Assembly (NCBI GenBank): GCA_040081205.1
Contig: JBEBHE010000003.1
Location: 1 to 40,512 of the forward strand
Length of the DNA stretch: 40,512 bases
Source: Burkholderiales bacterium
Lineage (GTDB): Bacteria; Pseudomonadota; Gammaproteobacteria; Burkholderiales; SG8-41
Reading direction: 5' to 3'
This document shows positions 31 through 38,341 of the stretch, one piece after another. Under the pieces are notes generated by a model, which worked only from the letters and a program-made list of their open reading frames with translations, ran no database searches and was not told the DNA's origin. The first letter of the stretch is position 1. Each line of letters begins with the position of its first letter. Made by a program: the position numbers and the translations under genes.

Positions 31-459
31 TTAAATCAGCTTACTGAAGACACCACCACTTGAGATCGTAAATAACAACGGCCCCTGTCTGCCGGCTGCG
101 CGGCGCGCCATACCGGGCAATGCGCGAACCAGCAATTGCGCCAGATCCTCGCCACCCATATCAACACCCGTCGCAACAAATCCGCGTAGTTTTGCAGTTT
201 GGTATGCGGCGCGCTCTAGGGGGTTGCGGCGGATGTGCTGGTCTTTGGTGATCAATACCCATTCGCGCCGCCCAACTTCCGGTATCCAATCCACATCCGG
301 TGCGGATTGCGCGAAGTGATCGATGTGAACTTCGACCTTGGCGCCAGCCGCGCGCAAAGCATCCGCCACCACATACCGCCCGATCTGATAGTCGAGAAAG
401 AAAGTGAGCGAAGCCAGCCGCTCGGCGTCACGCCGCGCGTGGCTCGCTGCGGAGGGCAT
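31..459 (-). CDS. PIN-like toxin, VapC45 type
   Basis: FFLD near the N-terminus, 'APDVDWIPEVGRREWVLITKDQHIRRNPLE' typical of VapC45-like PIN proteins; overlaps the upstream DUF433 gene. Confidence 0.8.
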   Translation of the reverse strand: MPSAASHARRDAERLASLTFFLDYQIGRYVVADALRAAGAKVEVHIDHFAQSAPDVDWIPEVGRREWVLITKDQHIRRNPLERAAYQTAKLRGFVATGVDMGGEDLAQLLVRALPGMARRAAGRQGPLLFTISSGGVFSKLI

Positions 460-1117
460 TCTGCACGACTTCCGACGGGACGTCGTAGTCCTTCGCCAAC
501 GCTTCTACCGATTCGCCTGAATAGAAGCGCTCAGCCAGAACAGCGGTTCGCAAGCCATAGCCGTCCAGCACTGGCCGGCCGAAAGAAAATCGCGGATCGA
601 TTACTACGTCACCTGCTGGCGTGCCGACCTTGGTATCTTGGCGCACCGGCGCAGGGAACAGCACAATTTTTTCAGGTAGCCCCTTGGGATCGCGACGCAC
701 GCGTTTCAATCGGTCACGTATCACTTCACGCATCTGCACCTGGCCCTGCTGGGTTGCACCGATCAATGCGCCGAACTTTTCAACAAACAAATCGACGCCA
801 TCGGTTTCAAATTGCTCTTCCGCGAGCGGCCGACGGGTCTTAAAACTGCGGCGCAGGTACTCAACAGCCTTACGCACTTTGGGCAGCGGAATGCTGTGCT
901 CGCGTCTTATGCCCGCGAGAACAAATGCTTCGACCAGGTTGATGAACGACAAACGCTTCTCAGCACGATCAGCAATATCAATCACCGCACGGAAGCGTTG
1001 CTGGCCGACCATCCACGCGCGCAAAGTCGATTTGGGCAGGCGCAGGTAGCCCGCCGCCTCTGCAATGCTATAGGCGGGCACTTCTCTAAGATCTTGTTTT
1101 GTAAAGTTTTTTACCAA
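428..1117 (-). CDS. DUF433-domain antitoxin with N-terminal HTH, VapB45 type
   Basis: 'YSIAEAAGYLRLPKSTLRAW' HTH, 'LSFINLVEA', C-terminal 'VIDPRFSFGRPVL...GESVEALAKDYDV' DUF433. Start placed at TTG 1117 (uncertain); the ORF-track extension to 1354 looks non-coding. Confidence 0.85.
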   Translation of the reverse strand: MVKNFTKQDLREVPAYSIAEAAGYLRLPKSTLRAWMVGQQRFRAVIDIADRAEKRLSFINLVEAFVLAGIRREHSIPLPKVRKAVEYLRRSFKTRRPLAEEQFETDGVDLFVEKFGALIGATQQGQVQMREVIRDRLKRVRRDPKGLPEKIVLFPAPVRQDTKVGTPAGDVVIDPRFSFGRPVLDGYGLRTAVLAERFYSGESVEALAKDYDVPSEVVQNALRSEPRAA

Positions 1118-1452
1118 ACCCGTCAGTCTCTTGGTTACACGATGAATACTAACGTTCTGTCGCCACAATGGCAACTTTGCGCGCTGCGCAACGCATACCT
1201 GCGACGATAGGTGCAGCAAATTCGCACCACAAGCGCTGATTGCAGAAATAATTCCGCATCCTTTGGCCCAGATGACATGCCACGTTCGGCGGCAAACTAA
1301 TAGTGACAACAACAGTTGGCGCAGACCAACGCAAATAGGTAAGCATCGGCCCAACTATTCTCGTCACTACGCTGACAAGGGACTTGTCACGCGAGCATTG
1401 GTGAATGCCGCGCGCCGCTGTTGCAAAAATATTTATCTATTTCGCATTTTCT

Positions 1453-1670
1453 TTGAAACTTTTTTCCGGCGCATCGTCATAGCGGCAATTGCGGGGTATG
1501 TTTTATTTTTGCTCCGCATACTCTGTGACGGATAAAGGACTTCTTTGGACGTCACTAGACAGCACTGGATTATCGGTGGCTTCGTCAGCCCGTTTGATCC
1601 GCTTCAAGCATCACCCGTAGCACCGCGGCACCAAAACCGGACAAATCTCCTGAAAGCCGGTGGCCGCAAG
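1453..1670 (+). repeat. Structured direct repeat, copy 1 (core 1561-1670)
   Basis: Core aligns to 9944-10052 with 7 substitutions + 1 indel; 1453-1518 aligns to 9864-9931; extra hairpin GTGACG/CGTCAC at 1526-1555. Confidence 0.95.
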
Positions 1671-1682
1671 CATGACCAAATG

Positions 1683-2942
1683 TCATGATTTACTGCCGAC
1701 CATCATACCTAGCCATACCGAAACAATCATTAAAACGAGACCCGGCACTATTCGAGCCGCGTAAATTGCACCTCCCGATTTGAAAGCGACCAATGCTTTC
1801 ATTAGTGTATTTGTCGAAAGGCCGATCAGTATGGTTGTGACTGCGTCTGCGCTTGAAATTTTATTTGAAGCCATCAACGAAGCAGCCGATGCTGCCGTCG
1901 CGTGCGCGTCAGCCAACCCGGTGATGGCGGCGCCCAGCAACATGCCAGATGCGCCAAGCCATGCATTCAATCCGCCTGATATCACCAACACCAAGCTAAC
2001 CAACGCAGCGAATCCAGCGGCTGTCTTCAGATCAAATGCGCGGACCTTGTCATCCACTTTCTTCAGTGGGCCAACAGGCGCCCTGCGGAAGAAGAACATT
2101 AGTCCGTAAAGAGAAGCAGCCAGTCCGCCAAGACCCAGTGGCAGTGCCAGTGGCGCCAGCAGCGCGGGCTGTACCGTCAAAATCACAATGGTCATTTGAA
2201 CGATGGTGGCAATGGAGGACAGTACGGCGCCGGCGACCGCGCCGTTCATCAGTGCTTTCTGTCGAGAGGCCCGTTCACCCATTGAATAAATGGTGGCGGT
2301 GCTGGAAACAAAGCCGGAAGCGAAACCTGCGAGTGGCAGACCGTAGCGCGGACCCAGCGAACGCATGGCGACATAGCCCAACGCGCTGATCGCCATCACC
2401 AGTACCACCAAGCGTGCCATTGCGCGGGGATTCAGCGCTTCAAACGGTCCCAGATAGCGGTCAGGCGCCAACGGCAGCACAATCAACGCTACTGCAGAAA
2501 ACAGGATGATGTCGTGCAATTCCTGTTCGCTGAGCACTCTTCGCACAAAGTAGTGGATGCGGTTTCGTGCCGCAAGAAGCAAGGCAACGACAGCGCCAAT
2601 GCCGGCGGCCAATAATGGCTCTCGGATTGCCAAGCCACCCAACACACAGGTCAGAATCAGCGCAAACTCAGTCGTGATACCCGGATCTGGTGCTCGCGTT
2701 CGACGGTAGGCGACCAACGCCCCTGCTCCGACAAGCGTCGTTGCCCCAAACAGTAATAACTCGCCTTCCAACAACATACTAACCGCACCGAGTAAAGCCG
2801 ACACAACAAAAGTGCGTATTCCAGCGGCACTTCTGTTTGGTCCGGTTTCTTTGCGACGCTCTCGCTCCGCCCCGATTAGCAGGCCTACCCCAAGCGCAAC
2901 GCTGAGGCCGAGGAGAGCGTTTGCGGATGGAACTGTGAGCAT
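1683..2942 (-). CDS. MgtC/SapB family + DUF4010 membrane protein
   Basis: 'GLLIGAERER...AAGIRTF...GITTE' MgtC motifs, 'GFASGFVSSTA' DUF4010, many TM segments; start at ATG 2942. Confidence 0.9.
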   Translation of the reverse strand: MLTVPSANALLGLSVALGVGLLIGAERERRKETGPNRSAAGIRTFVVSALLGAVSMLLEGELLLFGATTLVGAGALVAYRRTRAPDPGITTEFALILTCVLGGLAIREPLLAAGIGAVVALLLAARNRIHYFVRRVLSEQELHDIILFSAVALIVLPLAPDRYLGPFEALNPRAMARLVVLVMAISALGYVAMRSLGPRYGLPLAGFASGFVSSTATIYSMGERASRQKALMNGAVAGAVLSSIATIVQMTIVILTVQPALLAPLALPLGLGGLAASLYGLMFFFRRAPVGPLKKVDDKVRAFDLKTAAGFAALVSLVLVISGGLNAWLGASGMLLGAAITGLADAHATAASAASLMASNKISSADAVTTILIGLSTNTLMKALVAFKSGGAIYAARIVPGLVLMIVSVWLGMMVGSKS

Positions 2943-3230
2943 ATTGCGGCACCTTAAAATCGTATACACATCGAAATCATGCGTCACCAACAGCAAACAA
3001 GATTTTTTTGCGGCGGGCGTGCCTCCAGTTCACAAAATGGCAGCGTCAACCAAATAACATTAAACACTTGGCGTTATCGGTGAACGCATACGTCAATGGA
3101 AGCATAGCGTAAGTAAGTGCCACTGCATTACCTCACATGGCAGCAATTCGTTGTCTGTTCGTTTGCGTACTTACCTGTCCTGAATTCACGCATATCCTAC
3201 AGTTGTCACCACGCTTCCAAGTCCTCAACC

Positions 3231-3271
3231 TTGATTTGGGTCAAGCTGAATACAGGGGGCTCCCCTACAAT
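3231..3271 (+). promoter_or_regulatory. FNR/CRP-family box with class II promoter geometry
   Basis: TTGAT-TTGG-GTCAA (3231-3244; consensus TTGAT-N4-ATCAA) and TACAAT -10 at 3266-3271, which centres the box near -41. Confidence 0.65.
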
Positions 3272-3336
3272 AGTGCAGTTGCCGGGATACCTTAGCCCCT
3301 GCGATATGCAGCTCTTGATTCACCACGGTTCTTTCC

Positions 3337-4572
3337 ATGACTGCACCACTATTGCTTGCCTGGATCTGTGCTGCGCTACTGCTGCAGGTGGTGGCGGGGA
3401 TAAGCGTGGCCGTTTGGCGACAGCATCGCGCTCCGAAAAAACCATCAGACACCGTGCGCGACTTACATTCTCCGTTGGCGTCAGGCGCTTGGATTGGATG
3501 GCGCGAATTCCGTGTTGCGCGCCGTGCATTCGAGGACGAGGTTCATTCGCAGTGTTCTTTCCATCTCGAACCGGTTGATGGTATCGAGTTGCCGCAGTTC
3601 AAACCGGGACAATTCCTCACATTTCAACTTGCGGTTGGGGACGACGCTCAGGCACGCACCATCGTCCGCTGCTACTCGCTCTCCGACCGGCCAGCGCCGG
3701 GCGGCTACCGTGTCACTATCAAGCGCGTGCCTGCGCCAGTAGATCGACCGGATCTGCCTCCGGGCGCATCCTCCACGCACTTTCATGATCGAATACACGA
3801 AGGTGACATCCTCAGAATCAAAGCTCCATCAGGACATTTCCATATCGACGACGATGCAAAGGTGCCAGTGGTGCTTATCGCTGGCGGCATAGGCGTTACG
3901 CCCATGATGAGCATGCTACGCTGGTGCCTCGATGAGCAGCCAGAGAGAACCGTTCACCTCTACTATGGACTGCGACACGGCGGGGAAGAAGCATTCAAGA
4001 CACTTCTCGAATCCTTAGCCGCAAGCCACCCTCGGTTCCATCTGAACGTAGTCTACAGCCGCCCCGGCGTTAACGACGTCCAAGGCCGCGACTACCAACA
4101 CGCAGAGCACGTCAACATTGACCTGTTGCGTCGAACCTTGCCTCACGGCAGGCATCAGTTCTATGTCTGCGGCCCGACCGCGATGATGGAGAATCTGGTC
4201 CCTGCAATCGTCGCGTGGGGCGTGCCGGAACAGGATATTCACTATGAGGCGTTCGGCCCGGCGTCCGTGCATCTGAATCATGCGGCTCACACAACATCAA
4301 TCAACTACACCTCAACTCCGGTTGAGGTGCGATTTGAGCGTTCGGGCCGCACCTTACTGTGGGACGGGCAGGATGGCAGCCTGCTGGAATTCGCAGAGCG
4401 TCACGGGGTTCCAGTGGATTCCGGTTGCCGGGCCGGCAGTTGTGGCAGCTGCGAAACCAGGCTAATCGCGGGAACCGTGCGCTACGTGAAAGCGCTCGAT
4501 CATGACATCACGCCGGGGCATTGTCTGCTGTGCATGGGTATCCCAACTTCCGCCATGGCGTTGGAAGCTTAA
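3337..4572 (+). CDS. Membrane-anchored FAD/NAD(P)H oxidoreductase with C-terminal 2Fe-2S ferredoxin
   Basis: N-terminal TM helix, RCYSLS (FAD), GGIGVTP (NAD), YVCGP, EAF, CRAGSCGSC...C. Confidence 0.9.
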   Translation: MTAPLLLAWICAALLLQVVAGISVAVWRQHRAPKKPSDTVRDLHSPLASGAWIGWREFRVARRAFEDEVHSQCSFHLEPVDGIELPQFKPGQFLTFQLAVGDDAQARTIVRCYSLSDRPAPGGYRVTIKRVPAPVDRPDLPPGASSTHFHDRIHEGDILRIKAPSGHFHIDDDAKVPVVLIAGGIGVTPMMSMLRWCLDEQPERTVHLYYGLRHGGEEAFKTLLESLAASHPRFHLNVVYSRPGVNDVQGRDYQHAEHVNIDLLRRTLPHGRHQFYVCGPTAMMENLVPAIVAWGVPEQDIHYEAFGPASVHLNHAAHTTSINYTSTPVEVRFERSGRTLLWDGQDGSLLEFAERHGVPVDSGCRAGSCGSCETRLIAGTVRYVKALDHDITPGHCLLCMGIPTSAMALEA

Positions 4573-4576
4573 GCAC

Positions 4577-5155
4577 ATGCACGCAAGATTGTTCAGTCGC
4601 CAGATTTTGCCCTTTTTGCTGGCCTTTAGTGCACTGGTGGCGGTTGCATTGCTCCTTGATGCTGCACTGCATTTGCTGAATGCTGTCTGGATCGGACGCT
4701 ACCTTGGCATACCCGGCACGCTGCTGATCCTGCTTTCATTTGGATATTCCTTGCGCAAGCGCAAAATGATCAGCGCCGGCCGACCTGCCACGCTTCTGCG
4801 CCTGCACGAACGCATGGCTTGGCTTGGGTCCCTATTGATTCTGGTGCATGCAGGCATCCATTTCAATTCCATTCTGGCATGGCTGGCGGTAGGCGCAATG
4901 CTTATCAACGTGACTAGCGGGCTGACCGGAAAGTATTTGCTGGAACGTTCCCGGATGCGCATGGCGGAAGCGCGTCAGCAAATGCGTCAGCAGGGCATTA
5001 CAACGGCAGAAATGGAAGACCGCATGTATTGGGACAGCTTGACGTTCGACGTGGTTAAGCAGTGGCGCGCGGTGCACTTCCCGATTACCCTGGCATTTGC
5101 CGTCCTCGCGTTGGCACATATCATTGCCATTTTCCTGTTTTGGGGCTGGCATTGA
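4577..5155 (+). CDS. Integral membrane protein with conserved His in TM helices (possible heme b ligands)
   Basis: About 5 hydrophobic helices with LRLHE, LVHAGIH, WRAVH, LAHI; starts 4 bp after the oxidoreductase stop. Confidence 0.75.
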   Translation: MHARLFSRQILPFLLAFSALVAVALLLDAALHLLNAVWIGRYLGIPGTLLILLSFGYSLRKRKMISAGRPATLLRLHERMAWLGSLLILVHAGIHFNSILAWLAVGAMLINVTSGLTGKYLLERSRMRMAEARQQMRQQGITTAEMEDRMYWDSLTFDVVKQWRAVHFPITLAFAVLALAHIIAIFLFWGWH

Positions 5156-5877
5156 CGCGCTGGCTTTTGGCCCTGATCGTCGCCAATTTGATTGGGCTAC
5201 TGGCGCTGGTGTTCATTTTTCCGCACCTGATGGTCAGTCCCGGCGCGCTAATGGACGGGCACGCCCATCTCGCCACTGACTGCTTTGCCTGTCATGCGCC
5301 GTTACGTGGCGCAGCGTCGCAACGTTGTGTGACATGCCACGCAGTGCCCGACATCGGATTACGTACAACCAACGGTGCGCCGATTGCCCAAAAAACACTC
5401 AAAACCTCGTTTCATCGGGAATTGATTGAGCAGGACTGCATGGCATGTCACAGCGATCACCAGGCCCCGAGACTGACGCAACGCAGCCGTAAGCCCTTCT
5501 CACACGCACTTTTGCGCGCCCCTGTGCGCGATCTTTGCGAAGCGTGCCACAAAGCACCCACAGATAGTCTCCACCGCCAAATCACCGGCAATTGTTTGCA
5601 ATGCCACCGCCAAGAAAAATGGAAACCCGCCACCTTTGAACATGACAAGCTATTTCTGTTGGATCGTGATCACAACACAACATGCGTAACGTGCCATGCA
5701 AATAATGACTACAGCCGCTACACCTGCTATGGCTGCCATGAACACCAGCCGGACAAGATTCGCAGGAAGCATGAGAAAGAAGGCATTCGGAACTTCGAAA
5801 ACTGCGTCGAATGTCACCGCAGCGCAGATGAAAAGCCGCGTGAGCAAGGAAATCGGGACCGGCGGCGCCGGGATTGA
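5152..5877 (+). CDS. Octaheme cytochrome c (class III / cytochrome c3-like)
   Basis: Eight CxxCH motifs (CFACH, CVTCH, CMACH, CEACH, CLQCH, CVTCH, CYGCH, CVECH), N-terminal TM/signal, TTGA start-stop overlap with upstream gene. Confidence 0.9.
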   Translation: MTRWLLALIVANLIGLLALVFIFPHLMVSPGALMDGHAHLATDCFACHAPLRGAASQRCVTCHAVPDIGLRTTNGAPIAQKTLKTSFHRELIEQDCMACHSDHQAPRLTQRSRKPFSHALLRAPVRDLCEACHKAPTDSLHRQITGNCLQCHRQEKWKPATFEHDKLFLLDRDHNTTCVTCHANNDYSRYTCYGCHEHQPDKIRRKHEKEGIRNFENCVECHRSADEKPREQGNRDRRRRD

Positions 5878-6124
5878 ACCGTTTTCGGTCATGTCGATGT
5901 TCGGCTACGATTTAGTTCTGCCTACAGTCCTTCTTAATACATGCTGGAATGGAATCACCTTTCCCTGATGGGGCTCACTACTTGAAATATTCTATGGTCG
6001 TCCACCCGTTCCTCGATCGCGTGTATCAGATAGCGTCCTTCCTAGTGTTGTCCCATCCTGCGAGTAACGCCGTGGCACCGATGTATCCACGCCGGCAAAG
6101 AGTATGTTGTTGTAATCGCACGGT

Positions 6125-8905
6125 TTGTGTGCCGGCCGAGGCAACCACGCATTCGCACTTGACAAGGCTTCGGCAGTGAAACCCGTCGCAGCGCCCTTAG
6201 CACCGCACACGGTACCCGTCGAGGCTATTGTGGCAGCCTTGAATGTGCGTCCCGATGCCGGCTTGCAGAGCGGCCAGGCCGCAGAGAGATTGGCGCAATT
6301 CGGCCCGAATCAGTTGCCGGTTACTCCACCACGATCACCCTGGCGCGTTTTGTTCGTCCAGTTCAAGGGGGTCATGATTGTTATCCTCTTCGGCGCAGCA
6401 CTATTGGCGGCCCTTGTGGGCAGCTACAAAGACGCGCTGGTCATTCTGGCGGTCATCGTAATCAACGCATTCGTGGGCTTTTACCAGGAATACCGAGCAG
6501 AGCGCAGCCTTGACGCCCTTAAGTCGATGTTGCCCGTCAAGGCACGCGTGCGTCGCGATGGCAGCAGTCATGAGATTCGCGCCGACGCCCTGGTTCCCGG
6601 CGACATGCTGCTACTCGAGGCGGGGGACAATGTGGCTGCCGACGGACGCATCGTCATGGCAGCAGGTGTCGAAATCGACGAATCCGCATTGACGGGGGAA
6701 TCGCTGCCTGCAAGCAAGCAGATTGCGCCGCTGGCAGCGGCGACTGCGCCCCTCGGCGACCGTAGCAACATGGCTTACATGAACTCCTTGGTCACACGTG
6801 GCCGCGCCGAGATGGTGGTCACGGCCACTGGCTCTCGCACCGAGATGGGGCGCCTCTCTCTGGAATTGGCGGCTACCGTAGAAGTGCCAACCCCCTTGCA
6901 GAAGCAACTCGACCAACTGGCCAAGCGCCTGGGTGCAATCGCCTTGGTTCTGGTAGCACTGTTGTCCCTGATGCAGTATCTGCGCGGTGCCACGATCGTT
7001 CACATCATGCTGGATGCGATCGCGCTGGCCGTTGCTGCGATGCCTGAAGGGTTGCCAGTCGTGGTGACCGTCACGCTGGCCTTGGGCATGCATAAACTGG
7101 CCCGACAGCATGCAATCGTCAAGCGTCTCGCCAGCGTAGAGACATTGGGTTGCACGACGGTGATCTGTTCCGACAAGACCGGGACGCTGACTCTCAACCA
7201 GATGACGGTGAGGACCGTCTGCTACGAGGGCAGGTCGTTCGAAGTGTCCGGAGAAGGCTATGCCACGAACGGCTCGATCACTGATCTCATGGGCCATACC
7301 GCCCTAACCGACTTCAATGCATTGCTGGTTCCAATAGTGGCTTGCAACGACAGCCGCATCGTCTACAACCACGGTGATGACGCAAAAGTCGTTGGCGACC
7401 CCATGGAGGCCGCGCTGCTTGTGCTGGCAGCTAAGGGCGGCGTCGTGCGTGATGATGTCGAACGCGCCTTGCCACGCTTGGCAGAGTTTCCCTTCGATTC
7501 CGCGCACAAGTTCATGGCCACCTTCCACGACGACGGACATGAGGTGAAGGTGTTCGTCAAGGGCGCGCCGGATGTGCTGCTTGCACACTGCACCAGTTGG
7601 CGCTCCGTAGGCACAGAGCAGCCACTGGACGAGTCGTGCCGGCAGCGAATCGACGCAGACTACCAAGCACTTGGCCAGCGGGGCTTGCGTGGGCTGCTGA
7701 TTGCGTCGCGCACGGTACCATCGACCAGCTTCGATGCGACAAAGGATCTGTCCTCCTGGATCGATGAGTTGTGCTTTATCGGACTCGTCGGCCTGATGGA
7801 TCCGCCGCGCGCCGAAGCGAAGCAGGCTATCGCCGAATGCGGGCGGGCGGGAATTGCCGTGAAGATGATTACCGGTGATCATCAGACTACCGCTACTGCA
7901 ATTGCAGCGGAACTGGGATTTGTGGGGCGCACCGTGTCGGGCGCCGAACTCGACCGTATGTCTCCGGAGCAACTCGCAGCCGTCGTTAACGACGTCGCCG
8001 TGTTCGCGCGAGTGACGTCTGGCCACAAGGTGGCCATCGTGAGGGCGTTGCAGACCAACGGCCATGTTGTCGCAATGACGGGTGATGGAGTCAACGATGC
8101 GTCCGCAGTAAAACAGGCTGACATTGGCATCGCCATGGGGATCAATGGCACGGCGGTTGTAAAAGAAGCTGCCACCATGGTGCTGACCGATGACAACTTC
8201 GCTACTATCGTCACCGCAGTCCGGCACGGACGCACCCTGTACGACAATATCTTGAAGTTTGTACGCTTCCAACTCTCGACGACGATCGGCGCGATCTTGA
8301 CCGTGTTCATTGCACCGCTTTTGGGCCTGCCCGAGCCGTTTACGGCACTGCAGATCCTGTGGGTCGCAATTATCATGGACGGGCCGCCCGCTGTCTCTTT
8401 GGCACTCGACTCCGCACGCCCGGGCATCATGGACGAGCCGCCGCGCCCGCGTGCCGAACCGGTTCTACCCCTGAGGCGTATAGCACGCGTTTTTGCCTAC
8501 GGTGCCACAATAGCAGCGGGCACGTTGACGGTGCTCTATTATGGGTTGCAGACAGGGGCCCAGGACCGCGCCTTAACCTTGGCTTTCACGACCTTTGTGC
8601 TGTTTCAGTTCTTCAACGTGTTCAATGCTCGCAACGAAGCGGGATCGGCATTCAACGCGCAATTGTTCCAAAACAGGATGCTGTGGTTTTCACTCGCCGG
8701 CACTTTAGCCCTTCAGGCGCTTGCGGTGCACTGGGCGCCGGCTTCAACGCTCTTTGGAACGACAGGCATGGCTTTGGAAGACTGGCCGATGGCCATCGCA
8801 GTTGCCTCTTCGGTGCTAGTGTTTGAAGAGGTACGTAAGCTCGGATCGCGCGCTTGGCGGTCATGGCAGCGACCGCACCTGAAGATTTCCAAGGCTGTCA
8901 CCTGA
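6125..8905 (+). CDS. Cation-transporting P-type ATPase (P2-like)
   Basis: TGES, PEGLP, DKTGT, KGAP, TGD, GDGVNDA motifs; start uncertain (GTG 6125 or 6176). Confidence 0.95.
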
Positions 8906-9364: not shown

Positions 9365-9863
9365 TGCAAAATAAATGGCTCCTCAGGTTCGCGATTTCTT
9401 GTTCAATTTCTGTGAAGCTACCGCTCTAAACAAGAAATACTGATTTTCGTCGATGCGGATTTTGGAGGACCGCCATTGCGTTAAGCAGTCATTGTCGTTC
9501 GACTTAACCGTAATCACGTCGATATGGAAAGCTGTCTTCGTCTTCGCGAATTGGCGACAGACTGCTAGGGGTAGAAAGGACTCATCCAGAATTTCCGTTT
9601 GCTGTCATTGAGATTTCTCGTAAGCGGCCACTCATTTTCCTTTCACGCAGCCGTTCAAACTAGCAAGGCGGCTCGGGAGTTGTTTCTGGAAGTTTGGCAA
9701 ACTTGGCATCTTCATGGCGCAGCCATTCTGATTTCCTTCGAAGCAGACGCCCATCCCGAGCCACGGGCTTAGACGGACTGTTCGCAGTGCGAACAGTCGT
9801 TTGGCGGTTAAACTTAAGAAAATAATTCTCGTCGAACAGACCAAACCCATGAATCATATGTCA

Positions 9864-10052
9864 TTGAAACTTTTTTTCTGGCGCAAAGTCAAAGCGGCAA
9901 ATGCGAGAAAGATTATTTTCGTGGTCTCGCACAACCAGTGGATAGCACCGGATTATCGGTGGCTTCGTCAGCCCGTTTGATGCGCGTCAAGCATCGCCGT
10001 AGCACCGCAGTATCAAAACCGGACAAATCTCCTGAAAGCCGGTGGCCGCAAG
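9864..10052 (+). repeat. Structured direct repeat, copy 2 (core 9944-10052)
   Basis: Matches copy 1; the last 39 nt are identical and similarity ends abruptly after GGCCGCAAG. Confidence 0.95.
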
Positions 10053-10435
10053 GTCTGGAGGTATTGGTAAGAAATGCCCCTCGCGTATTTTCGCGTTTGG
10101 CACAAGCAGCACGTTAAGTCAGACTTACCCGCATGTAGATTTGCGCATGCGGGCACTACGTTAAGTTGGCAGTCTGCCCGCGCCTCTCCGGTACGGGCAT
10201 CCGTAAGCACCGCTTGGTACCACGTTAGCGGCACCCCATCGCACCCAGCGCCAGCAGCTGGCGGAGTCGATCGCCTTCGATCGTCCGTTCGCTGCGCCAG
10301 GGTTCCACGTCAAGTTGCGCCAGTCATCTGGGCCAGCGCGCGTCGTAACTAGATAGCGCCAGCTGCTAGTGACGACGCGCGGAATCTCTGCGTCATCAAG
10401 CATTTAAGTAGTGGTTTTTGTAATGACCGTCAGTA

Positions 10436-10735
10436 GTGATAGGCCGTTCTGGCCCATCACATCGTAAGGAACCGTGCAATGCGGTTCGTCCCAGCCCTCC
10501 TATGGGCGTCTAGTACCGCGCCTCCCTGGCGCAACCCGTGAGTCCGGGTAATGACTCAGCGATGGTCAGCAACTCCAACAGGAGGCGCCATCGATGCCAA
10601 TGCCGTGTCGGGCAGGCAAGCAGCAAAACAACGACACAAACCGGGAGTGGTGTCCCGAGGTCCCTCGTAGCGCTCCCATGCCAAGGCATGGAGCCGGACA
10701 GTAACACTTACCTGACAAGCGTTACACACCGACAC
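10436..10735 (+). ncRNA. Putative structured RNA/leader upstream of Integrase_1-type recombinase
   Basis: At least 9 consecutive hairpins read by eye, some with plus-strand G-U pairs; no credible ORF; no family recognised. Confidence 0.45.
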
Positions 10736-10755
10736 AATTTGACGAAAGGAATGCA

Positions 10756-11622
10756 ATGAAGGACCTGAACTACGAACTGAAATTGCTGTGCCAGCGTAAC
10801 CGCGACGGCAGCTACGCCACGCAACATGCGCGGGAGGACATCCTGACCCAGATCGCGAATCAGCTGCATGCACAGGGGTTCAAGGACATGAAGGCGACCA
10901 GCTTAAAGCCCAAGCACGTGACCTCGCTGGTGGAGCACTGGAAATCGCAATCACTGTCTGCTGGGACGATCAAGAACCGGATGACGGTGCTGCGATGGTG
11001 GGCGGAGAAAGTAAACAAGGAGAATGTAATGGCGCAGGACAACGATAACTACGGTATCGCAAGACGAACATACGTCACTAACCTCAATCAGTCCCGGAGC
11101 CTTACAGCCGGTGATTTAGCCAAAGTGACTGATCCGTACACTCAGCTATCACTGAAACTGCAGGCCGCGTTCGGCCTGCGGCGCGAAGAATCCATCAAGA
11201 TCCGTCCGGAATGGGCAGACGGGAGTGACCGGATCACGCTTCAGGCAAGCTGGACCAAAGGCGGTCGGGAACGGGAAATCCCCATCCGAAATGAACAGCA
11301 GCGAAACGTGCTGAACGAAGCCAAGCAACTGGCGGGCAAGGGAAGTCTGATCCCTTCAGACAGAACTTATGTTCAGCAACTGCAACGCTTCAAGTCGCAG
11401 TGCCAAACCGCCGGCATCTGGCATGTGCATGGCCACCGCCATCATTACGCACAAGACCGATACCGGGAACTGACCGGCTGGCTTTGCCCAGCACAGGGCG
11501 GGCCTACGTCCAAGCAATTGTCGCTGGAACAGAAGTGCCTGGATCATAAGGCGCGACTCACCATCAGTAAGGAGCTAGGGCACGGGCGCGTGAACATCGT
11601 ATCGGTCTATTGCGGCAAATAA
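10756..11622 (+). CDS. Tyrosine recombinase, Phage_int_SAM_2 + Integrase_1 type
   Basis: N-terminus 'NRDGSYATQ...LKPKHV...GTIKNRMTVLRWW'; catalytic R (FGLRREES), K (TKGGRER), HxxR (HGHRH), H (LGHGR), Y (VSVYCG); RBS AAAGGA. Confidence 0.9.
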   Translation: MKDLNYELKLLCQRNRDGSYATQHAREDILTQIANQLHAQGFKDMKATSLKPKHVTSLVEHWKSQSLSAGTIKNRMTVLRWWAEKVNKENVMAQDNDNYGIARRTYVTNLNQSRSLTAGDLAKVTDPYTQLSLKLQAAFGLRREESIKIRPEWADGSDRITLQASWTKGGREREIPIRNEQQRNVLNEAKQLAGKGSLIPSDRTYVQQLQRFKSQCQTAGIWHVHGHRHHYAQDRYRELTGWLCPAQGGPTSKQLSLEQKCLDHKARLTISKELGHGRVNIVSVYCGK

Positions 11623-11808: not shown

Positions 11809-12153
11809 ATGAACACCGACCCTGAAAGCGACGAGCGCTTGCCCCTGCCAGTGCGCCGCTGCCTGACCAAGGAACAGGCGGCGGATTACTTGGGCATCGG
11901 CGTAACGCTACTACTTCAGTCGGGGCCACCGGCAATCAAGATTGGCCGGCGTTCGATTTGGGATGTCATTGACTTGGATGCGTGGCTGGAAGAATATAAG
12001 GGCCGAGGGCGGGCCAGAAAGGAGACTTTATGGCCCGTGAAAGCGGACTCTACCGGCGGCGAGACTCGCGCTACTGGTGGATCGATGTTGCATTACCGAA
12101 CGGCCGACGCTTATGCCAAAGTACTCGGACTGAAGACCGAAAAGAAGCGCTAG
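11809..12153 (+). CDS. Excisionase/AlpA-like HTH protein
   Basis: 'LTKEQAADYLGIG...IKIGRRSIWDVIDLDAWLE' pattern; overlaps the integrase start by 124 bp. Confidence 0.7.
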   Translation: MNTDPESDERLPLPVRRCLTKEQAADYLGIGVTLLLQSGPPAIKIGRRSIWDVIDLDAWLEEYKGRGRARKETLWPVKADSTGGETRATGGSMLHYRTADAYAKVLGLKTEKKR

Positions 12154-13094
12154 CCTTAATTGCCAAGCTCAAAAGCGAAGCATTCAGGCAAGCGCATTTT
12201 GGCGTAAAGCCCAAGCGTTCATGGCAGGAAGCCGTAGTCCGGTATCTCGAAGTAAAGGCCTCGCTTAGAAGCATTGGAGATGTAAAACGTATCTGCCGAA
12301 TCCTTGATCCAGTACTCGGTAAAAAGTACTTAAACGATATCGACGGGGATATGGTTTGGCAGGTATGTGAGCGGTTGTTACGCCGGGGAATTAAACCGGC
12401 CACTGTGAATCGCTATCTTGCAACCATCCGCGGCATTCTGCGGATGGCACGGGATGAATGGCAGTGGATCGACAACCATCCCAAAATCCGATTGCTTCCG
12501 GGTGAGGTGGAGCGTGACCGATGGCTTACGAGAGATGAGGCAGCCCGCTTGATCGCGGCCTGTCCTGCTCACTTGGCAGCCATCGTGCGCTTCGCCCTGG
12601 CGACAGGGTGCCGCGCTTCGGAGATTACCGGGTTGGAATGGCGTCGGGTGGATTTGGATCGCCACACGGCATGGCTAGACCATACCAAGAATGGCACGCC
12701 GAGAGGCGTCCCGTTGAATCGAGATGCGGTTGCCGTCTTGGAAGCGGAGCAAGGCAAGCATCCGGTTTATTGCTTCACCTATCGAGGCGCGCATTTTTCC
12801 GGCGCAGTGGGTAACTCGGCATGGTATGAAGCGGTAAAACGGGCGGAGCTTGGAAACTTCCGATTTCACGATTTGCGGCACACTTGGGCCTCATGGCATC
12901 GTCAGTCGGGAACATCGACGGATGAGCTAAAAGACTTGGGCGGCTGGAAGTCGCGTGTGATGGTGGATCGTTACGCCAAGTTTGCCACTGAGCATTTAGC
13001 GGTGGCGGCAGCCCGGATTGAATCGGGCCTGTCGGGCGCAAACGTAGGAAATGTTCTACGTTTTCCCTACGGTGGTGAAATGAAGTTAGGCTGA
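12030..13094 (+). CDS. Phage-type tyrosine integrase (island integrase)
   Basis: TGCRASEI, TKNG, FHDLRHTWAS, GGWKS, RYA; RBS AGGAG; adjacent to the tRNA 3' end. Confidence 0.95.
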   Translation: MARESGLYRRRDSRYWWIDVALPNGRRLCQSTRTEDRKEALALIAKLKSEAFRQAHFGVKPKRSWQEAVVRYLEVKASLRSIGDVKRICRILDPVLGKKYLNDIDGDMVWQVCERLLRRGIKPATVNRYLATIRGILRMARDEWQWIDNHPKIRLLPGEVERDRWLTRDEAARLIAACPAHLAAIVRFALATGCRASEITGLEWRRVDLDRHTAWLDHTKNGTPRGVPLNRDAVAVLEAEQGKHPVYCFTYRGAHFSGAVGNSAWYEAVKRAELGNFRFHDLRHTWASWHRQSGTSTDELKDLGGWKSRVMVDRYAKFATEHLAVAAARIESGLSGANVGNVLRFPYGGEMKLG

Positions 13095-13119: not shown

Positions 13120-13195
13120 TGGTGGCCAAGGGCGGAATTGAACCACCGACACACGGATTTTCAGTCCGCTGCTCTACCAACTGAGCTACTTGGCC
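13120..13195 (-). tRNA. tRNA-Phe (GAA)
   Basis: GGCCAAGTAGCTCAGTTGGTAGAGCAGCGGACTGAAAATCCGTGTGTCGGTGGTTCAATTCCGCCCTTGGCCACCA: 76 nt cloverleaf, GAA anticodon, encoded CCA. Confidence 0.98.
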
Positions 13196-15473: not shown

Positions 15474-15581
15474 TGTAATGCCGTACCGCAGCAATTTCAA
15501 TAGGTTTGTACTTAAAAACAGGGGGTTGGCCAGTAATCCGCTGGGCCGTCTGGTTTACCTATTTAAGCTAAGTATTTGTTT

Positions 15582-15962
15582 TTATTGTATTTTTATGGCA
15601 AGCACTGGCTGCACAGAAGTGCTTGCGGATGTGCGGATCAGCTCTACGCCATCCACTGTCATTTTCCAGCGTCCCGCATCCTCACGCGGCGGCCTGGACA
15701 CCACAAAAGTGGTAGTCCACAACCCCACGCCAACCACAAAGTTATCGCCCTCAAATTTTTTCAGCGGCGCTGTAATCGAGGTTTTGACGCCGCCCTTTAA
15801 GCGCCGGTAATCCACGCTGCCATCCTGCGTAATCAGCAAACTCATACCCGGCGCGTTCCATTGTCCGACGTATGCGGATTTCTCCGGCGGCACTGGATTC
15901 GCGCAGGCCGCAAGCAGCAACATCGCCGTTACCAACATCGCCAGCACATTCCGGTTTTTCAT
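15582..15962 (-). CDS. Putative lipoprotein
   Basis: MKNRNVLAMLVTAMLLLAAC lipobox signal. Confidence 0.8.
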   Translation of the reverse strand: MKNRNVLAMLVTAMLLLAACANPVPPEKSAYVGQWNAPGMSLLITQDGSVDYRRLKGGVKTSITAPLKKFEGDNFVVGVGLWTTTFVVSRPPREDAGRWKMTVDGVELIRTSASTSVQPVLAIKIQ

Positions 15963-19698: not shown

Positions 19699-21114
19699 AT
19701 GACACTACGTAAACACTTGTTTTTAGTGTTATTTTTTTGCGGCGTTTTTCCCGTCACTGTGCACGCCCAACTGCCGCCGCCGGTGGCGCAAGCCCTCGCC
19801 CGTGCCGGCATCGCCGAAACCAGCGTCGGCGTGTACGTGCATGAAATCGGCGCGGCGGAACCCGTGGTTGCGCATCGCGCCGAACAACCGCTGAACCCGG
19901 CGTCGGTGATGAAACTCGTCACCACCTACGCCGGCCTCGAACTGCTCGGCCCTGCGCATCAGTGGAGCACCGACATTTACACCGAAGGTGTGATGCTGCA
20001 GGACGTGCTCGTCGGCAATCTCATCATCAAGGGCGGCGGCGACCCGAAATTCACTATTGAAAATTTCTGGATGCTGCTTCGCGCCTTGCGCGCCAAAGGC
20101 GTGCGCGAAATTCGCGGCGACGTATTACTGGATCGCGGCCTGTTCACCACCGATCATCCGGATTCGGGCCGTTTCGATGGCGAGCCGACACAGCCGTACA
20201 ACACCACGCCTGACGCGTTGCTCACCAATTTCAAAACGTTTACGCTGACCTTTGCGCCCGAAGCCGATGGGCGCGGCGTGCGCATCGCGGTTGATCCGCC
20301 GCTGCCGCAAATCCAGATTGTCAACAACCTCACACTCGGTGACGGTGCGTGCGGCAACTGGCTGGCACGGATCAAAACCCAAGTGCAGGACACCGGCGAT
20401 ATCGCGCGGCTGACGTTTGCCGGCCCTTACGCACGCCAGTGCGCCGAACAAAGCAACTATTACAGCGTGCTCGGCCACCGCGAGTATGTCGCCGGATTGT
20501 TTCAGCACTTGTGGCGCGACCTTGGCGGCGTGTTCAACGGTCGCGTGCGTGACGGCGATGCCAATGCCAATTCGGTCAAGCTGGTCAGCCAACGCTCGCT
20601 CGCGTTGTCGGAAATCGTGCGCGACATCAACAAATTCAGCAATAACGTGATGGCGCGGCAATTGTTGCTCAGCATCGGCTCGGCAACTGGCGCAGCAGCA
20701 ACACCCGACCGCGCCGGCCGCGCCGTGCAGCAATTCTTTGCCAGCCGCGGCCTGCCGATGCCGCAACTGGTGATCGAAAACGGCTCCGGGCTGTCGCGCA
20801 TCGAACGCGTCAGCGCACGCGATCTCGGGCAAATGCTGCAAGCCGCGTTTCGCAGCCCGGTGATGCCGGAGTTCATCGCGTCGATGCCGCTGGTCGGCGT
20901 GGACGGCACCATGTACCGGCGGCTAACCAACAGCGGCGTTGCTGGGCAGGCGCACATCAAAACCGGTTTAATCGCCGGCGTGCGCGCCATGGCAGGTTAC
21001 GTGCTGGATGCCAAGGGGCGGCGCGTGGCGGTGGTGATGCTCATCAACCACGCGAACTCGTTCAACGGCAATGCGGTGCAGGATGCGTTGTTGCGGTGGG
21101 TGCATGGGCGGTAG
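19699..21114 (+). CDS. dacB: D-Ala-D-Ala carboxypeptidase/endopeptidase PBP4
   Basis: PASVMK (SxxK), SNN, GSGLSR, KTG; signal peptide. Confidence 0.95.
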   Translation: MTLRKHLFLVLFFCGVFPVTVHAQLPPPVAQALARAGIAETSVGVYVHEIGAAEPVVAHRAEQPLNPASVMKLVTTYAGLELLGPAHQWSTDIYTEGVMLQDVLVGNLIIKGGGDPKFTIENFWMLLRALRAKGVREIRGDVLLDRGLFTTDHPDSGRFDGEPTQPYNTTPDALLTNFKTFTLTFAPEADGRGVRIAVDPPLPQIQIVNNLTLGDGACGNWLARIKTQVQDTGDIARLTFAGPYARQCAEQSNYYSVLGHREYVAGLFQHLWRDLGGVFNGRVRDGDANANSVKLVSQRSLALSEIVRDINKFSNNVMARQLLLSIGSATGAAATPDRAGRAVQQFFASRGLPMPQLVIENGSGLSRIERVSARDLGQMLQAAFRSPVMPEFIASMPLVGVDGTMYRRLTNSGVAGQAHIKTGLIAGVRAMAGYVLDAKGRRVAVVMLINHANSFNGNAVQDALLRWVHGR

Positions 21115-22408: not shown

Positions 22409-23887
22409 TCATAGTTTCAATTTTTTCCACAGTACATCTATTCGCTCTTTCACCGCCTGATCCATCGCTATCGGAGTACCCCAGCGCCGATCCGTTTCCG
22501 CAGACCACTTGTTGGTGGCATCGATACCCATCTTCGAACCCAGGCCCGCTACCGGACTGGCGAAATCGAGGTAGTCAATCGGCGTTGCGTCCGCGATCAG
22601 CGTGTCGCGCCGCGGATCGACGCGCGTGGTGAGCGCCCAGATCACTTCTTTCCAGTCGCGCACGTTGACATCGTCGTCGGTGACAATGATGAACTTGGTG
22701 TACATGAATTGCCGCAAAAAACTCCAGATGCCGAACATCACGCGTTTGGCGTGACCGGCGTATTGTTTTTTGATGCTGACGCAGGCGATGCGGTACGAGC
22801 AGCCTTCGGGCGGCAGGTGAAAATCGACGATTTCCGGAAACTGCTTTTTCAGCAACGGCACGAACACTTCGTTCAGCGCCACGCCGAGCATTGCCGGTTC
22901 GTCGGGCGGTTTGCCGGTGTAGGTGCTGTGGTAGATCGCGTCGCGCCGCTGCGTGATGCGTTCGATGGTGAACACCGGAAATTTTTCCTGCTCGTTGTAG
23001 TAGCCGGTGTGGTCGCCAAACGGGCCTTCGAGCGCGGTCTCGCCGGGGTAAATGAATCCTTCGAGAACAATCTCCGCGCTGGCCGGCACCTGCAAGTTGT
23101 GCGATAGGCACTTCACGATTTCGGTTTTTTCGCCGCGCAGCAAGCCCGCGAACTGATATTCACTCAGACTATCCGGCACCGGCGTCACGGCGCCCAGCAC
23201 GGTGGCCGGATCAGCGCCCAGCGCCACCGCTATCGGGTACGGTTCGCGCGGATTTGCCAGCGAGTGATCGCGAAAATCCAGTGCGCCGCCGCGATGATCG
23301 AGCCAGCGCATAATGACTTTGTTTTTGGCGATAACCTGCTGGCGATAGATGCCAAGATTCTGGCGTGGCTTGTGCGGCCCCCGTGTGACCGTCAGTCCCC
23401 AGGTAATCAGCGGCGCCACATCGCCCGGCCAGCAGGTTTGTATCGGCAGACGCGCGAGATCCACGCCGGCGCCTTCAAAAATGATTTCCTGACACGGCGC
23501 ATTCGACACCACACGCGGCGTCATGGTCATGATTTGTTTCAGCAGCGGCAGTTTGTCCCATGCGTCACGCAGACCCTTGGGCGGCTCCGGTTCCTTGAGA
23601 TACGCCAGCGTTTCACCGATTTCACGCAAGCGTGCAAGCGGGTCTTCATCCGGAGACGCGCCCATGGCGAGCGCCACGCGCTTCACGCTGCCGAACAGAT
23701 TACCCAGCACTGGCATGGTGTAACCCTTCGGCTGTTCAAACAGCAACGCAGGCCCGCCCGCCTTCAACACGCGGTCGCAAATTTCGGTCATTTCCAACCG
23801 GGGATCGACCTCAGCACCGACACGCTTCAATTCACCCAGCGACTCGAGTTGTGCGATAAAATCACGCAAGCATTTGTTTTTATTCAT
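22409..23887 (-). CDS. ubiD: 4-hydroxy-3-polyprenylbenzoate decarboxylase
   Basis: [50 protein letters not shown]. Confidence 0.97.
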
Positions 23888-24230
23888 TATTTTTATGGCC
23901 CGTTTTCCGTCCATACGCCACTTCCGGCTCAGGCAAATCGATATTCACCATGATCGCGGAAAAACTTTTGCCATGCGGGTCGCTCGACAGTGACGTCGTG
24001 ACGCCGCCAGCCAATGCGTCGTGCAATACAAAATTCAGCGCACCGATATTCGGTAATTCGTAGCGCTCGATTTTGCCTTTGACCCGATTACCGTATGCGC
24101 CGCGCACGCGCTCGATAGTCACCTGATCCTGCAACAGACGGAAATCGCGCTCGTCGTACGCAATCACGGAAACATTCAGCGTATTGCCTTTGTCACCGGC
24201 GCGACAGTGCGCGATTTCGCGCAGCTTCAC
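23880..24230 (-). CDS. AtuA-related small protein
   Basis: [14 protein letters not shown]...[12 protein letters not shown]...DPHGKS. Confidence 0.85.
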
Positions 24231-37804: not shown

Positions 37805-37831
37805 CCGTTAAAATTTTGTAAGCATTTGTTT

Positions 37832-38341
37832 TTAAACATTTTTTATATACTCGTGAATACGCCCTGCATGCCCTGCCTCGTCGCTGTGATGATGGTGGCC
37901 ACCGCCATGGCTACCATACGCGCCGGCCTCCGGTTCAAACGGCGCGCGCATCGTCGTCAGCGTCGCGCCCAACCCTTTGAGCATTTCCGCAAGCACGTGA
38001 TCCGCAGCAATACGCAAAAATCCGTCGCCTACCTGCACCGGCACATGGCGATTGCCCAAATGATAGGCAGCGCGCGTGAGCGCCATTGCGTCGGCACACG
38101 CTATATGCAGCACGTCTTCGGCTTCCGATATCACTTCTACAAAACGCCCGTCGCTGGCGAGCAACAAATCACCACCACGAAGAATTTCTCCGCGCGGCAA
38201 CAATAACCACGCGTCTTCGCCGTCCACGAGTTTGGTGCGCAAGCGGCTCTTCTGGCGCAAATCGAATGGGAGCTTCAATTGCACCTGCGCGGCGTGCCGG
38301 CGCGCTTCGGCAGCAGCCAATTTGGTTTTGATCTCGATCAT
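37832..38341 (-). CDS. ureE: Urease accessory protein UreE
   Basis: [23 protein letters not shown], His-rich tail; TGATG overlap with ureC. Confidence 0.97.

Follow-up and report, generated by a model that had tools for sequence, protein, structure and literature searches.

What is the element of about 200 nucleotides (nt) that occurs twice, at 1453–1670 and at 9864–10052, in a 40,512-nt stretch of a Burkholderiales bacterium (contig JBEBHE010000003.1, positions 1 to 40,512; the whole stretch is hereafter called the window)? A reading made from the sequence alone had described it as either a non-coding RNA or a folded single-stranded DNA site, maintained by selection on the secondary structure of the plus strand. 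The comparisons reported here lead to another answer. Copy 2 is not self-contained but is the distal part of a non-coding block of about 0.9 kb tied to a gene for a tyrosine-recombinase-like protein, and the element is most likely part of the DNA-transfer control region of a genomic island, and not a free-standing new RNA gene. The features on which the argument turns are the following.

1453..1670, plus strand: copy 1, a 3'-truncated orphan of the distal module (homology to relatives, nhmmer, Pfam)
9864..10052, plus strand: copy 2 as the sequence-only reading drew it, the distal ~200 nt of the block (sequence comparison)
9855..10750, plus strand: complete conserved block before the recombinase-like gene, free of open reading frames (ORFs), a putative 'mob leader' (blastn, alignment, nhmmer)
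9936..10075, plus strand: conserved core, the sole part present in all five copies (alignment, identities)
10756..11622, plus strand: gene for a 288-aa tyrosine-recombinase-like protein, PF12834/PF12835 (Phage_int_SAM_2 + Integrase_1; Pfam)

Relatives of the element were obtained by scanning a collection of species-representative genomes for an 18-mer of the core. Among the 21 loci found, blastn distinguished three true relatives from 18 loci that share only a seed match of 18–23 nt. All three are Burkholderiales/Betaproteobacteria metagenome-assembled genomes.

L020: CAMDLH010000191.1
L005: CANKUB010000281.1
L010: JALHRQ010000013.1

With the two copies of the window they form a family sample of five sequences, whose invariance is inflated by the use of the core 18-mer to find them. 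The block is 87% identical to L020 over 9855–10492 (670 nt). It aligns with L005 over 9950–10730, at 82–84% in blastn pieces and at 72.6% as one alignment, and with L010 it shares matching patches up to the homologous gene, the sequence between the patches being unalignable. Homology of copy 2 thus extends past 10052, to 10492 in L020 and to 10730 in L005: the proposed 200-nt unit is indeed duplicated, but its right border was misplaced for copy 2, and copy 1 is cut at 1670. This cut lies inside the most conserved run. Where the relatives, after ...GCCGCAAG, go on with GTCTGGAGGTA..., copy 1 stops and runs into the 3' end of a cargo gene, its last nucleotide being 13 nt from the stop codon of an MgtC/DUF4010 gene (1683–2996, minus strand).

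The two copies, which have the same orientation, lie where they had been reported. Their cores (1553–1670 and 9936–10052) are identical at 106 of 116 aligned positions (91.4%) and their 5' parts at 52 of 75 (69.3%), which is far above chance; nhmmer, run with profiles of core and whole block, detected no third copy within the window. Copy 2 is nearer to L020, in another genome (core 95.7%, 5' part 87.0%), than to copy 1, and the window copies are therefore separate lineages of one family with no recent local duplication between them, in agreement with the sequence-only reading. An extra self-contained hairpin had also been ascribed to copy 1 (1526–1555). The alignment shows that L020, L005 and L010 carry the same stretch, so copy 2 has lost about 29 nt and copy 1 has gained no insertion; the left arm of the supposed hairpin, as this alignment is read here, is not conserved. 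Two further identities for the pair were rejected. As ends of a miniature inverted-repeat transposable element or insertion sequence, the copies lack an inverted repeat joining the ends of either one, and their left flanks differ, with no duplicated target. As an attL/attR pair they are only 91% identical, with an indel, and both recombinase genes of the window lie outside the repeat pair.

The block is non-coding, as had been supposed: no ORF is conserved in L020, L005 or L010, and indels of 1 and 2 nt are present. A coding reading of the 92-aa ORF at 10074–10352, which follows a GGAGG, was discarded, this ORF having no Pfam or NCBIfam match and not being kept in any of the three relatives. 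The best conserved part of the whole block is the core. The four full copies agree without exception over 43 consecutive nt and all five copies over 37, of which the search 18-mer imposed 18. Between copy 2 and L010, the core is 80.0% identical and the adjacent gene 67.6% in nucleotides and 63.5% in amino acids, which indicates that the core is under more constraint than this protein gene. The patchiness of the conservation with respect to L010 likewise points to selection rather than recent transfer.

No known family accounts for the element. Rfam 15 at the gathering score recognized only a tRNA and 5_ureB_sRNA in the whole window, both elsewhere; at E ≤ 10 there was no match in regions 1300–1800 and 9750–10250, in keeping with the sequence-only reading, which had recognised no family, and a single chance-level match (E 6.9) in region 10000–10800. 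Searches with blastn in distant mode found no match to copy 1 in plasmid and phage collections, and none to the whole block in plasmids and E. coli genomes. The kind of region is nonetheless known, namely a non-coding transfer and control region before a recombinase-like relaxase gene, of which this member is without Rfam, plasmid, phage or E. coli match.

The recombinase-like gene starts at 10756, directly after the end of the block at 10750. Judged from its domains and neighbours, its 288-aa product is a candidate atypical relaxase. Relaxases that resemble tyrosine recombinases, called MOB_M, are described in a 2026 preprint as the commonest relaxases in chromosomes, 96% of them near an integrase (bioRxiv 10.64898/2026.01.13.699239). 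The context of the 288-aa gene is of this type: the product has tyrosine-recombinase catalytic domains, an integrase gene is nearby, and a coupling protein gene accompanies the family in some plasmids. At least 7996 relatives of the protein are present in the protein collection, named only XerC, XerD or integrase, and no NCBIfam family matches it. Among the close homologues, at least 120 share 67–95% identity with it. Of the papers listed by a literature search on the PF12834/PF12835 domain names, none connected the family with relaxases, and one passage refers to it as a prophage integrase. By tblastn, the gene occurs in 201 plasmid records, many of 4–15 kb. Ten plasmid loci (L022–L031) were inspected, which with the window and L010 makes 12 gene-bearing loci. 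A type IV coupling protein gene lies at most 240 nt downstream in three of the ten (pSIO1, pAhaem5227a and a Pleionea plasmid), directly or past one small ORF, and is absent from seven; an arm-type integrase follows the gene, as in the window, in one, and six have neither. At least 550 nt upstream of the gene are unannotated in eight of the ten, a soft count because genes are incompletely tabulated in PLSDB. In six plasmid loci (L022, L024, L027, L029, L030 and L031) the gene is directly followed by a small hypothetical ORF of about 70–105 aa, which precedes the coupling protein gene if present; this ORF may encode an accessory partner. Assignment to the MpsA/MobK/TcpM subgroup of such relaxases was rejected, the 288-aa protein having its own N-terminal SAM-like domain (Phage_int_SAM_2, residues 1–83, E 5e-19).

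If this protein is a relaxase, where is its DNA target? A site rich in inverted repeats is conserved with the gene family, and it lies not in the element but downstream of it.

10337..10381, strand not applicable: long inverted repeat, GTAACT...AGTGAC, with 16-nt arms that are 94% complementary (repeat scan, folding)
10436..10487, plus strand: two further hairpins, 10436–10460 and 10469–10487 (folding)
10672..10694, plus strand: hairpin 62–84 nt upstream of the ATG (folding)
Counterparts of the long inverted repeat: L010 1727–1762; L022 1373–1395; L023 3801–3840; L024 942–962; L025 4352–4456; L026 3600–3622; L027 2385–2499; L028 2758–2790; L029 772–795; L030 2990–3017; L031 2990–3018

A scan of 1 kb upstream of the gene revealed one repeat of the 10337–10381 type in each of the 12 gene-bearing loci, 370–1116 nt upstream of the ATG. 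The arms are exactly GTCACT/AGTGAC in eight (L022, L024, L026, L029, L030, L031 and the long-looped L025 and L027). One arm has a mismatch in two, L023 and the window, whose form is common to L020 and L005. In the remaining two both arms have changed with pairing kept (GTCCCT/AGGGAC in L010, GTCATT/AATGAC in L028). The outer arm sequence depends on the lineage yet remains complementary, giving stems of 14–24 bp around loops of 4 to 91 nt. The exact GTCACT/AGTGAC pattern was found in none of 18 unrelated loci and not in the window, about 0.05 occurrences being expected per 40 kb. Complementary arms with a variable loop fit recognition of a hairpin better than a recombination core with a fixed spacer, and this inverted repeat is the best candidate, on sequence grounds, for the DNA target of the recombinase-like protein. 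The folded single-stranded DNA formerly proposed for the element suits this repeat better. With the two hairpins that follow, it forms a three-hairpin cluster (10337–10487) located 269–419 nt upstream of the ATG. In four sequences the two hairpins are 85.9% paired with three double-changed pairs, values reached by 7–11 of 500 shuffles, while the long inverted repeat is 93.4% paired with one double change, reached by 131 of 500. The GTCACT-type repeat offers a simple sequence signature for finding the cis sites of such elements, including islands that have the site only.

The distribution of the element differs from that of the inverted repeat. Profiles of the core and block run with nhmmer against the ten plasmid loci found no counterpart (best E 0.032); the element is specific to this lineage. 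A compact oriT (origin of transfer) of 125–186 bp conserved with the relaxase family was accordingly discarded as an identity for it, there being no counterpart upstream of the gene in these ten loci.

The strongest structural claim made for the element concerned one stem, here called hairpin A.

1490..1518, plus strand: hairpin A of copy 1, 7 bp with a G-U among them, loop of 15 nt (sequence, covariation test)
9902..9931, plus strand: hairpin A of copy 2, 7 perfect bp, 16-nt loop (sequence, covariation test)

Its arms, TGCGGGG/CTCCGCA in copy 1 (1490–1496/1512–1518), are TGCGAGA/TCTCGCA in copy 2 (9902–9908/9925–9931), a difference of two compensatory G-C to A-U pairs and one G-U to G-C, exactly as had been claimed. 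When five transitions are placed in all 2002 ways on the 14 stem positions, 15.3% of the placements retain all seven pairs, 4.5% retain all pairs with at least two double changes, and 1.5% have all pairs Watson-Crick. In four sequences, 26 of 28 cells are paired and two of the seven pairs are altered on both sides. The hairpin sits in the least conserved part of the element, and its arms in L020 are the same as in copy 2; it is present, together with an AT tract, in copy 1, copy 2 and L020, while L005 has an IS3-type transposase gene instead. A selected hairpin at this position is plausible, and the compensated stem is suggestive, not strong, evidence for structure. Two copies and one compensated stem were an insufficient basis: the true unit proved four times longer, and its conserved part is without covariation.

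Taken together, these data lead me to favour, tentatively and at a little under an even chance, the hypothesis that the element forms the distal, promoter-proximal stretch of a mobilization leader read on the plus strand, like that of the integrative element Salmonella genomic island 1 (SGI1), with hairpin A as its 5' stem-loop and copy 1 as an orphan remnant. The block lies upstream of the recombinase-like gene and on the same strand, with the hairpin cluster in between, which is the layout of an SGI1-type leader. The block 9855–10750 would then serve a mobilizable island as its cis-acting region for control and transfer, and the cluster 10337–10487, with its GTCACT-type repeat, would be an oriT-like DNA target of the recombinase-like protein. 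A plus-strand leader would start upstream in the element, pass the oriT-like site and head towards the recombinase-like gene, as in SGI1. Hairpin A may limit or shape read-through; such a role would account for pairing that persists despite sequence drift. Copy 1 would be an orphan produced by tandem accretion, deletion or recombination, fused to cargo and devoid of both inverted repeat and gene. In the window, copy 1 indeed has no GTCACT-type inverted repeat.

Several observations weigh against an SGI1-like leader. A scan for sigma-70 consensus promoters gave no site in 9700–10900 or in 1300–1800, and a sigma-54/sigma-70 promoter that had been considered by eye at the left end was dropped, its spacing being unfit. 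No T-run follows hairpin A, and this hairpin is not universal, having only 5 bp in L010 and being missing from L005. The recombinase-like gene is absent beside L005 and L020 (two of the three relatives) and beside copy 1. Conservation here is highest in the distal core, whereas the 5' half of the SGI1 transcript is its more variable, dispensable part. The protein, unlike MpsA, MobK and TcpM, has an N-terminal SAM-like domain of its own, and equating PF12835 proteins with MOB_M is putative only. Folding of the core is also unhelpful. Among 23 pairs in five copies (the helices formerly proposed and two more), none has both partners altered, and 401 of 500 shuffles attain the observed covariation score, so selection on plus-strand structure was not borne out for the core. 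RNA minimum free energy z-scores are unremarkable in the two copies (−1.58 and −0.27 on the plus strand, 0.52 and 0.04 on the minus strand), and DNA-fold z-scores of −0.11 to 0.94 (four copies, both strands) are no better than shuffles.

The GGCT/AGCC and ACCGG/CCGGT stems are invariant and the internal repeat is present (15 nt, 87%), as had been described. The core also holds a CCGG/CCGG hairpin and a GGCC-GCAA-GGTC hairpin. The stem said to keep pairing through a G-U (CACTG/CGGTG in copy 1, CACCG/CGGTG in copy 2) has its central pair unpaired in three of the five family members. Consensus folding of the core gives helices that differ between the strands, each set with its own G-U pairs. For the whole block, consensus folds of the two strands show no clear asymmetry, the counts for L010 being unreliable in badly aligned stretches with many broken pairs.

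A constraint on sequence without covariation brings in the main rival to the SGI1-like leader, namely that the core functions in double-stranded form, offering a binding platform to a regulator, a host factor or an accessory protein of the relaxosome that acts alongside the inverted repeat 290–470 nt downstream, transcription being irrelevant. The features that bear on it are these.

10106–10119 and 10153–10166, plus strand: a pair of 14-nt direct repeats, 86% identical and at a distance of 47 nt (GCAGCACGTTAAGT / GCACTACGTTAAGT; repeat scan)
9780–9794 in the window, 1731–1745 in L020, 2283–2297 in L010, strand not applicable: palindrome GTTCGCAGTGCGAAC (GTTCGC-N3-GCGAAC; sequence)

This possibility, which I hold to be somewhat unlikely, draws on the 43-nt invariant run, whose lack of covariation speaks for constraint at the level of sequence and not of structure. 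It also accommodates the short repeats, direct and inverted, within and beyond the core, the empty promoter scan, and the retention of the core in all five copies, three of them without the gene. A conserved palindrome nearby suggests operator-type control: GTTCGCAGTGCGAAC is separated from the left edge of the block by 61 nt in the window and by 59 nt in L020, stands in L010 only 4 nt ahead of the recombinase-like gene's ATG, and may be an operator common to both module ends. The platform is weakened by the internal direct repeat and the CACYG/CGGTG repeat, which are not conserved in L005 and L010, by the want of a nameable binding protein, and by the homologue search method, which inflates invariance. 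As side observations, the 14-nt direct repeats are kept in L020, with a weaker third ACGTTAG visible by eye near 10223, and in L005 (296–996 and 2213–2830) a 98-aa ORF and an MqsA-family antitoxin gene occupy the place of the recombinase-like gene, the IS3-type transposase gene occupying that of the distal part of the block; the non-coding block can thus outlast its gene.

Could the element have no function of its own, being conserved through recent block transfer between hosts, with the compensation in hairpin A due to chance? The stem survives random placement of five transitions in 15% of cases, 73 of 500 column shuffles match its covariation in the four sequences, fold z-scores are near zero, and copy 1 is truncated. 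Recent transfer does not, however, account for the comparison with L010, in which the core is better conserved than the gene (80.0% against 67.6% in nucleotides) and the sequence between patches is unalignable. I therefore consider this explanation unlikely.

Less probable still is the interpretation implied by the sequence-only reading, that each copy is an independent gene for a trans-acting small RNA with its own promoter. Two copies are present in one genome, and the invariant loop TCTCCT is C/U-rich and could pair with Shine-Dalgarno sequences. The plus-strand helices contain 13 G-U cells, and one of the five unpaired cells is A-C, although the G-U count is biased because the helices were drawn on the plus strand from the outset. 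Neither promoter nor terminator was found at the borders, however. Copy 2 continues unbroken into 700 nt of further conserved sequence, the end of copy 1 is a truncation without a terminator, and Rfam has no match. Finally, it is very improbable that the direct copies are recombination sites at which the recombinase-like protein or homologous recombination excises or exchanges the 8.2-kb cargo: they do flank cargo genes in direct orientation, copy 2 adjoins the tyrosine-recombinase-like gene, and the cut of copy 1 in the invariant run could mark a crossover or nick point, but the copies are 91% and not 100% identical, an indel of 29 nt distinguishes them, copy 1 lacks the GTCACT inverted repeat that is the protein's family-wide candidate target, relatives have single copies, and the window contains no repeat of the tRNA-Phe end.

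The surroundings in the window are arranged like those of an integrative element: this is a genomic island located at a tRNA gene.

11809..12153, plus strand: ORF of 114 aa whose HTH_17 match is weak (E 6e-4, under the Pfam cut-off); may encode an excisionase or AlpA-like regulator (Pfam)
12030..13094, plus strand: Phage_integrase family tyrosine recombinase gene, its 3' end facing the tRNA (Pfam)
13120..13195, minus strand: tRNA-Phe (GAA) (tRNA/Rfam search)

The tRNA-Phe gene is likely the integration site of the island. No repeat of its region or end of at least 13 nt was found in the window, which places the far end of the island outside the window. The 8.2 kb between the copies encode the MgtC/DUF4010 membrane protein, an FNR-like (ferredoxin-reductase-like) reductase with a 2Fe-2S domain and a multihaem c3-type cytochrome. 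The cargo at 1683–8905 also includes a 217-aa ORF without family and a type IIA P-type ATPase, for which the nearest NCBIfam model is a PMR1-type calcium pump, below its cut-off. Left of copy 1 (31–1354, minus strand), a PIN_10 gene overlaps an HTH_66 + DUF433 gene, a combination that looks like a toxin-antitoxin or defence pair. Elsewhere in the window, the 5_ureB_sRNA match (104 bits, 39606–39891, plus strand) is antisense within a urease alpha-subunit gene (38341–40038, minus strand; Urease_alpha, Amidohydro_1) and probably reflects conservation of coding sequence, not a small RNA. AT-rich direct repeats of 28–43 nt (AAG.ATTTGTTTTTA...) recur in the right half, at 15569–15596, 19710–19737, 23867–23894, 29223–29250 and 37819–37846.

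If the SGI1-like leader is the right interpretation, the window would contain a mobilizable island belonging to a type classed as 'non-mobilizable' by standard tools because its relaxase resembles an integrase, and the non-coding region before the gene would be where transfer starts and is controlled. A bolder proposal, which I regard as quite unlikely, though a shade less so than independent small RNA genes, is that the recombinase-like enzymes of the very large, uncharacterized PF12834/PF12835 family act on a folded hairpin (GTCACT...AGTGAC) and, in this betaproteobacterial lineage, need a structured leader RNA with the ultra-conserved core as its functional domain. Were it true, the RNA requirement found in SGI1 would become a general mode of RNA-assisted DNA transfer or recombination, and the end of copy 1 at 1670 would mark a processing or strand-exchange point.

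How far does the window resemble systems already described? In SGI1, a transcript of about 700 nt from a distal promoter is mostly halted at a terminator-like hairpin 66 nt further on; past this point it runs through oriT and gives rise by processing to sgm-sRNA, which adjoins mpsA and is required for transfer (PMC9299015). The SGI1 oriT measures 125 bp, with three stem-loops (PMC6414798, PMC9299015, PMC8409611), and by arithmetic from the published coordinates it lies about 290–410 nt upstream of mpsA (PMC6414798, PMC9299015), to be compared with 269–419 nt for the cluster in the window. The likeness is one of layout and published coordinates. In both, a long ORF-poor region precedes a tyrosine-recombinase-like gene of the same strand and has a hairpin close to its distal end; a GC-rich cluster of three hairpins stands about 270–420 nt before the gene, and one more hairpin immediately before it (at the mpsA start in SGI1). 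Both also belong to an integrative element with a separate integrase. The last of these hairpins lies 62–84 nt before the ATG, and the window, L005 and L010 each form one from different sequence. The differences are that the block in the window exceeds its SGI1 counterpart by about 170 nt and has no promoter that the scan could find, that the distal part, most dispensable in SGI1, is the best conserved here, that the window protein has its N-terminal SAM-like domain, that no mpsB-like gene was identified in the window, and that the host is a betaproteobacterium, that of SGI1 an enterobacterium.

MpsA of SGI1, MobK of pIGRK and TcpM of pCW3 are relaxases resembling tyrosine recombinases (PMC8152469, PMC6414798) and have no core-binding N-terminal domain of their own (PMC8152469). 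Like the window, the MobK and TcpM systems have non-coding inverted and direct repeats directly upstream of the relaxase gene; their minimal oriTs, however, are 125–186 bp long and near the gene, while the element discussed here is 700–890 nt from it. Islands with oriT only are also described in the MOB_M preprint (bioRxiv 10.64898/2026.01.13.699239). MOB_M islands resemble the window in that the gene adjoins an integrase, and L005, L020 and copy 1, with a non-coding region and no gene, are as expected of hitchers that carry oriT only, except that copy 1 lacks the inverted repeat, the best oriT candidate. Tyrosine recombinases that use folded single-stranded sites act on integron attC and on the attP of CTX phage. 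Compared by sequence only, these sites recall the family-wide inverted repeat at 10337–10381, and not the element, in their complementary arms of varying sequence, the loop of the repeat varying from 4 to 91 nt. SGI1 is the sole system in which such a region has been dissected, and it proved unexpectedly RNA-dependent; a second, unrelated lineage sharing this layout would test how general that dependence is.

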